A DNA stretch of 64,000 nucleotides from Escherichia coli O157 typing phage 8. Below, in pieces: positions 32,740 to 34,400 of the stretch. The notes under the pieces are model-generated. The model worked only from the letters and a program-made list of their open reading frames with translations. It was not told the DNA's origin and searched no databases. Positions within the stretch are counted from its first letter, which is position 1. Every line of letters begins with the position of its first letter. Made by a program: the position numbers and the translations under genes. The stretch lies in the sequence record KP869106; one strand, given 5' to 3'.

Positions 32740-32800
32740 GCAGCGGGGCTAAATAGCCCCAGATACCTGAAAAGCTCCTTCTCATAGGGGCTTTTTTACG
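32740..32800 (+). terminator. putative tandem terminator hairpins
   Basis: GCGGGGCT-AAAT-AGCCCC hairpin, then CCTTCTCATAGGGG followed by CTTTTTT. Confidence 0.45.
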
Positions 32801-34400
32801 TCTATAAAGAGACTCTATACAATCCCTTTCCTTTCCTTCCTAGAATCTATCCCGTACCTTAAAAGCAATAACTCTATAGCTTACTCTATAGCCCCTTATC
32901 AAATCAACTTAAATATAAGCCCATAACCCGAAAGGGAAGGGCAACCATTTAAACGCTCTATAAAGCCCTATAACAGCCTTATCAACCTAACTTAAGCAAT
33001 CATATTAACCCACTCTAAAAAGCCCTTTATAGAGCTTTCTAGAGCCTTAAAAGAATCTTATAAGGGTACAAGCTTATAAGCTGGCTAGTATCTTGTGAAT
33101 ATCTAAACAACCCCTTGATAGTCACTAAAAAGTATGTTATAGGGGCTATAGAGTTACTTCAAAGTTACGTAAAAAGAGCTATAAAGTTACGTAAATGCTA
33201 GCCCCCTTAACATTTTCTTAACAATTTCTTAACAATCCCTACATAGTTATGCTTGTTAGAGACTTGTTAGCCCCTTGTTAAATCTCTGTTAAGACCATGT
33301 AAAAGCCTTGTAAAAGTCTTTGGCATAGCCTTAAAAGCTTCTGTAAAGCCCTATAAAGAGCTATCCATACAGTTGAGGGGTAGATACTAGTAAGAGGCTT
33401 AAAAGAACTTATAAGGGGCTATAGAGAGCTTTTAAGAGGTATGTTTAAGGAATCACTAAGAGGGAAAGGGAAACGATAAGAAAAGAGATAGTGACCATGT
33501 TAATAGCTTGTTAAAAAGATTAAACACTTGTTAGGAACTTGTTAATTATCTTAATTGGTATTGTTACCAATCCCTACAAAATAACTCTTTAAAATTAACT
33601 TGTTAGCTCTTGTTAGTCATCTGTTAAGATTCTGTAAAGCCTATTCAGCACTTGTTAAGAATCTATTAAGCTCTTGTTAGTTCTGTTAAGAAACTGTTAA
33701 GACCTTTGAAGAGTTGTTAAGAAGATGTGAGAGTTGTTAAGGAATTGTTAAGGATATTTTAAAATTCTGCAAAGGGGGTGTTACAGGGCTGTTAAGGGCT
33801 ACCAAGCAGATATACATCCTAATCAGATATTTTTCAGTTCCTTCAAAGACCCTAAAAAAATGACTTGATAGTCCTATTTTATAAAAATTTTAAGATTCTG
33901 AATAATTACCCAGACAGTCTTTTAAAAATACAGGTAGAAACAGGCTTATAAGATACCTTGTTAGTACCGTGTTAGACCTTGTGAGATAAGGTCTGTAAAG
34001 GTATTCCTGTTAAGTTTGTTAAAACAGTCTATATAGAGGCTTAGTAGTGTCTAGTGAACACCTATAGAGAGTGTCATAGCTTACATAGAGATTAAGAGGT
34101 GTATAGAGGCTTCTAAGAGGGTGTAGAGGGATGGTTAAGGCGATTGTATAGGTTGTTAAGAAGGCTTGTTAGAAGAGTGTTTAGAGGGCTATTTAGAAGG
34201 GTTATACAGAGGGGCTATTAAGACCACTAGATAGTTACTAAGACACTATATAGTACTATATAACTATATATATATAGAGAGTAAGATTAAGAAGGTTGTT
34301 AAGAAGGATAGATATTTTATTCACATATGATGGTGACCCAGAGGTTGGGACAACCGATAAAATTTTATAAAAATTAAAAAGCCCCCGATTAAGGAGGCTC
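32790..34400. repeat. 1.6 kb gene-free region dense in short degenerate direct repeats (TGTTAAG, CTTGTTAG, TATAAAG, TATAGAG families)
   Basis: No ORF of 60 aa or more on either strand in the track; more than 15 copies of (N)TGTTAAG in about 33590-33770; AT-rich TATATA tract near 34255-34290; flanked by convergently oriented gene blocks. Confidence 0.6.

Follow-up and report, generated by a model that had tools for sequence, protein, structure and literature searches.

The closest described counterparts of the locus analyzed here are the short direct terminal repeats (DTRs) of the Ounavirinae. UAB_Phi87, a close relative of Felix O1 and wV8, has no cohesive (cos) ends, and heating leaves its restriction pattern unchanged; two of its SpeI fragments, of 4322 and 2819 bp, are sensitive to Bal31, and run-off sequencing gave a DTR of 608 bp (Bardina et al. 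2016, PMC4837284). The large terminase (TerL) of wV8 clusters in the "Felixounalikevirus DTR group" of the same study (PMC4837284). In the Felixounavirus Pr103Blw, PhageTerm assigned DTR packaging with a 581-bp repeat (PMC8303462), and DTRs have been reported for D4 and for vB_CbrM_HP1 (HP1), where the repeat measures 570 bp and the record annotates a repeat_region. Here we describe an intergenic interval of the Escherichia coli O157 typing phage 8 record KP869106, at positions 32735-34410 of a 64,000-nucleotide stretch (the window), which shares with these DTRs the locus, the boundaries, the gene neighborhood and the repeat vocabulary at 75-92% nucleotide identity. We conclude that this gap is very probably the genome-end (concatemer-junction) region of Escherichia phage wV8, with linear, nonpermuted DNA, a DTR of 603 bp, fixed cuts and phased repeats that would act as assembly sites. 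The terminus is already known for the genus and the family, though it is unannotated in wV8: the wV8 record carries no DTR annotation, the genome papers of wV8 and Felix O1 did not map the ends, the latter deducing "short terminal repeats" from pulsed-field gel electrophoresis, and the wV8, Felix O1, VpaE1, Mordin and Moogle papers are silent on the gap.

Between 32700 and 34450 the window is 100% identical to positions 13850-15600 of wV8 (EU877232) and to O157 typing phages 11 and 12. About 256 records from Felixounavirus, Mooglevirus and Suspvirus match this part at 73-92% identity. By these identities the window is a Felix O1-like myovirus genome, that of Escherichia phage wV8 (Felixounavirus); in this part a window position equals the wV8 position plus 18850. 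The gap runs from the stop codon of gp27 to that of gp28 and is the longest stretch of the window without genes or tRNAs. A six-frame scan agreed with the first-pass annotation, which had seen no open reading frame (ORF) of 60 aa or more over about 1.6 kb: the largest stretch uncovered by ORFs of that size is 32786-34410 (1625 bp), followed by a gene running off the window end and by tRNA clusters, and there is no ORF of at least 30 aa between 32785 and 34411. The longest ORF in the gap has 28 aa, compared with 69±17 aa in shuffled sequences, none of which (0/300) was as short. This emptiness exceeds chance and stems from a repeat vocabulary full of TAA and TAG; stop trinucleotides reach a density of 0.085 in the gap versus 0.060 elsewhere.

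To place the ends, we compared both record ends in five relatives from different laboratories, Citrobacter phage HP1 (Mooglevirus) and the coliphages D4, ZX4221, NBSal004 and Ro111lw. All five hold an exact DTR with zero mismatches, of 570, 581, 591, 694 and 613 bp, respectively. Their common left boundary is ...AAATGCTA↓GCCCCCTTAACA (in longer form ...ACGTAAATGCTA↓GCCCCCTTAACATT...) and their common right boundary is TGTTAAGGGCTACC↓AAGCAGATATACA, the arrow marking the end of the repeat. The five records start exactly at GCCCCCTTAACA, with the right-end copy preceded by ...ACGTAAA(TG/CA)CTA, and end exactly at ...GGGCTACC, with the left-end copy continuing into AAGCAGATATACA. Both sequence-defined boundaries are also present in wV8, at 33200/33201 and 33803/33804. 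Read inward, the two ends are TGCTA↓GCCCCCTTAACA-N4-CTTAACA on the left and TGCTT↓GGTAGCCCTTAACA-N4-CTGTAACA on the right, and they have a GCCC(CC)TTAACA motif in common.

The same boundaries recur well beyond these five records. Several GenBank records of relatives open at the base aligned with 33201 and hold the region twice. When a census was taken with the initial 130 nt of the repeat as the query, 276 places in 253 records were found, so that about 23 records contain both copies; among the 60 matches listed there are five two-copy records, of which four open at the base aligned with 33201 and one, MET-P1-301, is deposited in inverted orientation. The left-boundary 24-mer was found in 11 IMG/VR contigs, which are uninformative on contig ends. 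Both boundary sequences occur in Suspvirus SUSP1 as well. The five records with exact DTRs share the same two boundaries across two genera at 75% identity, which argues that these are not assembly artifacts. SUSP1 (NC_028808.2, positions 71896-75017) has a homologous gap of 1.69 kb with 35% GC that is about 75% identical to that of wV8 over its full length (BLAST); its DTR boundary sequences lie 570 bp apart, and its periodicity is 10.4 bp.

It is hardly credible that the region is a misassembled low-complexity artifact or a gene for an untranslated RNA. The former might be favored by the contig join at 480-512, contaminated with adapter sequence, which shows the window to be a scaffold, but four independent records carry the identical region and about 256 are collinear with it, at the identities given above, so the misassembly that the first-pass annotation had named as a danger did not materialize. 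As for an RNA gene, there is no Rfam match (best E value, 0.27), a permissive threshold gave only a chance-level Phe leader over a terminator, the region lies between terminators, and the boundary segments do not fold significantly.

UAB_Phi87 allowed a comparison of the boundaries with published physical data. In its record the conserved boundaries are 614 bp apart and predict SpeI terminal fragments of 4435 and 2747 bp, which agree with the published fragments within 3% and place both ends in the homologous gap. As only two SpeI sites lie within ±7 kb, the published pair puts both ends in the gap with a precision of about 0.1 kb. We also considered headful (pac) packaging, which is ruled out by the unique, identical ends of the relatives and by the discrete Bal31-sensitive fragments. 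That the region contains the physical genome ends and the DTR, as the first-pass annotation had suggested in proposing a genome terminus and packaging site, is strongly supported by the conserved boundaries inside the interval and by the Bal31/SpeI ends of UAB_Phi87.

In this scenario, the packaged DNA would be linear and not permuted, starting at 33201 and ending at 33803, with the same 603 bp at both ends. Sequencing assembly would have collapsed the two DTR copies into one, and the virion genome would measure about 88,487 + 603 bp. Its left end would consist of the DTR, the right flank (33804-34410) as the unique subterminal DNA after the left-end copy, and then the minus-strand block gp28-gp45; at its right end, the plus-strand block of rIIA, rIIB and many small genes would be followed by the left flank (32735-33200), the unique subterminal DNA just inside the right-end copy, and by the DTR. 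In concatemers, one DTR copy would join neighboring genomes. TerL, the presumed nuclease at the DTR boundaries, would cut at two fixed sites, TGCTA↓GCCCCCTTAACA and GGGCTACC↓AAGCAG. Processing of T7 ends is modeled as nicking followed by duplication through strand displacement; by analogy, the wV8 repeat might then be duplicated by strand-displacement synthesis. The phased units in the DTR and both flanks, spaced by about one helical turn, may present binding or architectural sites on one face of the DNA, on which a packaging complex or an end-binding protein would assemble at the junction. This is the weakest step of the scheme. Convergent terminators would keep the region free of transcription.

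The terminator-like hairpins that had been noted on both sides of the gap were borne out by folding (Table 1). The left one closes the plus-strand block of rIIA/rIIB and small genes and has an annotated counterpart at the homologous place in the Michonne record; the right one, which is annotated in wV8, closes the minus-strand block gp28-gp45, including the lysin and a tail protein.

Table 1. Features of the gap and the terminase gene of wV8, in window coordinates (↓, predicted cut)
Feature	Position	Strand	Remarks
Terminator, two tandem hairpins then U run	32745..32796	+	Fold -25.6 kcal/mol, z -3.2
Left flank	32735..33200		CTCTATA and NTNTAAAG units, period 11.0 bp, zero TGTTAR
Conserved perfect 12-nt palindrome AGCTTATAAGCT	33070-33081		In left flank
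Left DTR boundary ...GTTACGTAAATGCTA↓GCCCCCTTAACA	33186..33212	+	Predicted cut 33200/33201; nearly invariant in 15-genome alignment
DTR, 603 bp, single collapsed copy	33201..33803		Projected from five exact DTRs; predicted virion end bases
Three CTTAACA units, 11 bp apart (inverted TGTTAAG)	33206..33236	-	Extreme left edge of DTR
Four TGTTAR units at exact 11-bp spacing	33254..33293	+	Facing inverted CTTAACA triplet
Main TGTTAAG/TGTTAG array	33498..33796	+	15 TGTTAR plus degenerate units; densest at 33601-33757, mean spacing 10.4 bp
Right DTR boundary TGTTAAGGGCTACC↓AAGCAGATATACA	33790..33816	+	Predicted cut 33803/33804; about 22 nt invariant in 15 genomes of two genera
Right flank	33804..34410		Period 11.6 bp; 7 TGTTAR, 9 TAGAGG-type units at ~12-bp spacing
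Invariant AT-only 19-mer CTATTTTATAAAAATTTTA	33873..33892		Lowest-GC spot of gap
Nearly invariant 45-mer AACAGGCTTATAAGATACCTTGTTAGTACCGTGTTAGACCTTGT	33939..33983	+	
Iteron-like array of TATAGAGG, TAAGAGG and TGTAGAGG units	34030..34230	+	~12-bp spacing
AT-rich CTATATAG...(TA)n tract	34245..34275		(TA)n length varies among relatives
Intrinsic terminator, hairpin then U run	34402-34377	-	Fold -14.5 kcal/mol, z -3.2; annotated at EU877232 15531-15548
terL, large terminase	50851..52452	+	Terminase_6N + Terminase_6C (Pfam)

The gap is indeed built from short degenerate repeats, as had been claimed. TGTTAR occurs 26 times in it (15.5 per kb, versus 0.87 per kb elsewhere), and exact TGTTAAG, on both strands, occurs 37 times in the window against 16.2±3.8 expected, with 15 of the 37 in the gap. 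More than 15 TGTTAAG-like copies had been counted at 33590-33770; the clustering there is real and the count slightly generous, since the cluster holds 10 TGTTAR and about 5 degenerate units, that is, about 15 phased units with a mean spacing of 10.4 bp including the degenerate ones. A base periodicity of 10.4-11.6 bp is found in every subregion of the gap, was reached by none of 100 shuffles and is absent or weak in two coding controls. Across the gap, the array totals about 150 phased units.

The vocabulary of these units differs among the three compartments, left flank, DTR and right flank (Table 1). The DTR opens with the three inverted CTTAACA units at its left edge, where Si3 has two additional 11-bp units, followed by 19 TGTTAR. 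The palindrome AGCTTATAAGCT in the left flank could be a site for a dimeric DNA-binding protein. A perfect 16-nt inverted repeat, CTCTATAGCCCCTTAT/ATAAGGGGCTATAGAG, has one arm in the left flank (32884-32899) and the other in the DTR (33411-33426), 511 nt apart; in the virion, the arms would be adjacent only at the right end.

We predicted DNA curvature with a wedge model using Bolshoy/Trifonov parameters, for which an A-tract sequence served as the control, and we treat curvature as weak evidence. The gap as a whole is unexceptional, 36 of 312 windows being equally curved. The gap contains three of the 12 strongest peaks, and two of these, at 33175 and 33853, lie just beyond the DTR boundaries; the one at 33175, in the left flank, is the second-highest predicted curvature of the window. 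Hairpins or cruciforms at the DTR boundaries found no support, as the folding of these segments is no better than that of shuffles.

T7 offers one parallel. Its junction, when analyzed in the same way, contains 13 CCTAAAG units in a stretch of about 440 bp that includes the 160-bp repeat, so that this degenerate heptamer recurs every 11-13 bp inside the repeat and on both sides of it, just as the wV8 units are phased in all three compartments; the wV8 units CTATAAAG and CTTAAAAG resemble the T7 heptamer. Both phages have a short, exact DTR in noncoding DNA and fixed, sequence-defined ends. However, T7 is a podovirus that is not related to wV8 and encodes its own RNA polymerase; its repeat and its noncoding tract are shorter than those of wV8, by about 4 and about 3 times, respectively, and its early promoters at the left end point inward, whereas the terminal blocks of wV8 point outward. 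A second parallel comes from the recognition sites of small terminases (TerS). In the R sites of lambda cosB and in pacL/pacR of SPP1, phased short TerS sites lie near the terminase cut and probably wrap DNA on an oligomeric recognition protein. As in these arrays, several phased short sites in wV8 stand beside a terminase cut site, the latter being predicted in wV8. Unlike them, the wV8 family has no recognizable TerS, its ends are DTRs rather than cohesive or headful-permuted, and its array, with about 150 units, is far larger.

Sequence conservation argues for functional constraint on the gap, the evidence being its identity between genera, the motif bias, the 11-nt indels and the phasing. 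In aligned columns the gap is 84-87% identical between genera, compared with 73-78% for the flanking genes, though liberal gapping in the repeats may inflate the former figure, and it contains invariant blocks of 20-45 nt. Within the DTR, conservation is 0.96 at motif positions versus 0.81 in spacers. Of 45 distinct alignment gaps of at least 8 nt, 29 have a length that deviates by no more than ±1 from a multiple of 11 nt, whereas 27% would be expected to do so, the events not all being independent; units are thus gained or lost whole, with helical phase preserved, and the length differences among the DTRs of relatives reflect gain and loss of such ~11-bp units. These data also bear on the notion that the gap is a mere buffer between convergent transcription units, made of drifting tandem repeats without sequence-specific function. 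Terminators on both sides and the 11-bp steps of unit gain and loss, as expected from replication slippage, would suit a buffer, but a tract that is more conserved between genera than its flanking genes, keeps invariant blocks and contains mapped DNA ends makes it a very improbable one.

The iteron-like units raise another question, namely, whether replication starts in the gap or specifically in the right flank (33804-34410), at an origin where an initiator binds the repeats and AT tracts melt, a function that might coexist with the DTR. The TAGAGG-type units at 34030-34230 with their ~12-bp spacing, the invariant AT-only 19-mer at 33873-33892, the (TA)n tract at 34245-34275 (which confirms the TATATA tract reported near 34260) and one DnaA-box-like TTATTCACA at 34317 would all fit, and T7 provides a precedent, since its promoters phiOL and phiOR, which are associated with origins, lie near the terminal repeat on either side of the genome. 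Yet the DnaA-like box is not conserved in several relatives, and a single match is about what chance predicts (0.14 per kb in the window); the gap has one match to the integration host factor (IHF) consensus. No initiator gene adjoins it, gp27 and gp28 matching only PHROGs of unknown function, and sigma-70 promoter-like sites are not significantly enriched (12 versus 7.2±2.5 expected). GC skew, which had been put forward as a check, was uninformative: the cumulative curve turns at about 35 kb and about 43 kb with gene orientation and therefore marks neither origin nor terminus. On balance, we regard an origin at this site as unlikely.

The repeats also recall T5, whose terminal repeat of about 10 kb carries the pre-early genes and is associated with a repeat-rich, noncoding injection-stop region. 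A T5-like signal for first-step transfer, with repeats at the inner edge halting DNA entry until pre-early proteins are made, would account for a repeat-dense noncoding tract beside a terminal repeat, which resembles the T5 region. We nevertheless give it very little credence: the wV8 repeat, at 0.6 kb (603 bp), contains no gene and no ORF above 28 aa, so that nothing could be expressed from a first-step fragment, and the first genes inside either end point outward. For related reasons, the first-pass suggestion that injection-first early genes lie at the end fits poorly. Both terminal blocks are transcribed outward to terminators, the gap shows no promoter enrichment, and the left-end block gp28-gp45 on the minus strand includes lysin and tail genes. 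In the reverse transcription-PCR table of Felix O1, ORFs 13, 16 and 20-22, of the gene array upstream of the gap, are maximally expressed at 5 min.

Several points weigh against our assignment of the gap as the genome-end region and should be set beside the evidence for it. The end coordinates of wV8 are a projection by homology, the virion evidence coming from relatives, and in UAB_Phi87 the prediction misses the DTR length by 6 bp and the fragment sizes by 72 and 113 bp. MET-P1-301, the reverse-oriented two-copy record, ends 15-30 nt inside the boundaries, and some single-copy records open elsewhere in the gap; these off-site starts of single-copy records are probably arbitrary or repeat-induced breaks. 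The two ends resemble each other only in their first ~14-25 nt, and over 90 nt their similarity fails to reach significance (z, 0.26). With respect to the repeats, their role is something that we infer: in the wedge model the TGTTAAG array comes out straight, with no static bend, and in T7 most end-proximal sites tolerate insertions, except near the inner edge of the left repeat. Finally, searches of Pfam, PHROGs, NCBIfam and PDB sequences revealed no small terminase beside terL and no repeat-binding protein.

The Felix O1 paper likewise reported no recognizable TerS. Upstream of terL, positions 49470-50829 encode gp54-gp56; gp54 is a DUF7217 protein, while Pfam, NCBIfam and PDB gave no match for gp55 (82 aa) or gp56 (66 aa). 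Among candidates for a TerS-like or repeat-binding factor, gp55 and gp56 would come first.

Three side observations concern other parts of the window. The ORF adjoining it on the minus strand (34411-35034) has 207 aa from its first ATG, with the start codon unsettled; it is annotated with 182 aa (549 nt) in wV8 and several relatives and with 201-212 aa in UAB_Phi87, VpaE1 and Tf, and its protein matches solely PHROG 4330, of unknown function. On the plus strand of the preceding block, the 18-nt element CCTAAACTGGAGATTCTA occurs at six sites (26988, 27457, 27836, 28906, 30973 and 32464; 6 matches versus 0.2 expected), the last just before the start codon of gp27. Its counterpart in Citrobacter phage Mordin is the 26-bp "start-associated sequence"-like repeat (PMC4611695), and the wV8 copy at 32464, at least, lies inside DR_6, a DR repeat annotated in the wV8 record. 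At the start of the window, the first 502 bases do not resemble wV8: positions 1-491 match phiV10 and the O157 typing phages 9 and 10 with 100% identity, and at 480-502 there is a fragment of an Illumina adapter, ATCTCGTATGCCGTCTTCTGCTT, followed by 10 N, after which wV8-like DNA begins abruptly at wV8 coordinate 70148. The same non-wV8 piece stands at the very end of O157 typing phage 7 (KP869105). The phiV10-like start and the adapter at the join mark the window as a scaffold or contig concatenation from a mixed phage sample.

As a locus, the gap is ordinary for a DTR phage. What we have not found described is the extent (about 150 units), the compartmentalized vocabulary and the strong conservation of the phased repeats; the DTR papers cited above are silent on the phased-repeat architecture of the flanks. 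A further, tentative hypothesis we consider possible rather than probable. In it, the ~1.1 kb of conserved, phased 11-bp units around the DTR, with their compartment-specific vocabularies, form a dedicated nucleoprotein region that organizes the ends; in a family lacking a recognizable small terminase, this would be a long binding array for a recognition or end-capping protein and possibly also a terminal origin. If true, this would be a solution to DNA recognition in packaging that has not yet been described for T4-type (Terminase_6) enzymes.

The assignment of the gap as the genome-end region has practical consequences. The wV8 record and most Felixounavirus records were opened upstream of rIIA, without the second repeat copy, and the true virion genome would be about 0.6 kb longer, with a different start, which matters for annotation, engineering and therapeutic-phage dossiers. 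From the conserved boundaries, ends can be predicted without experiments for some 250 related genomes. The locus is also a clean comparative data set, covering hundreds of genomes in which units come and go in 11-bp steps, and can be used to ask what short-repeat arrays do beside DTRs and how a terminase finds its cut sites in phages without a recognizable TerS.

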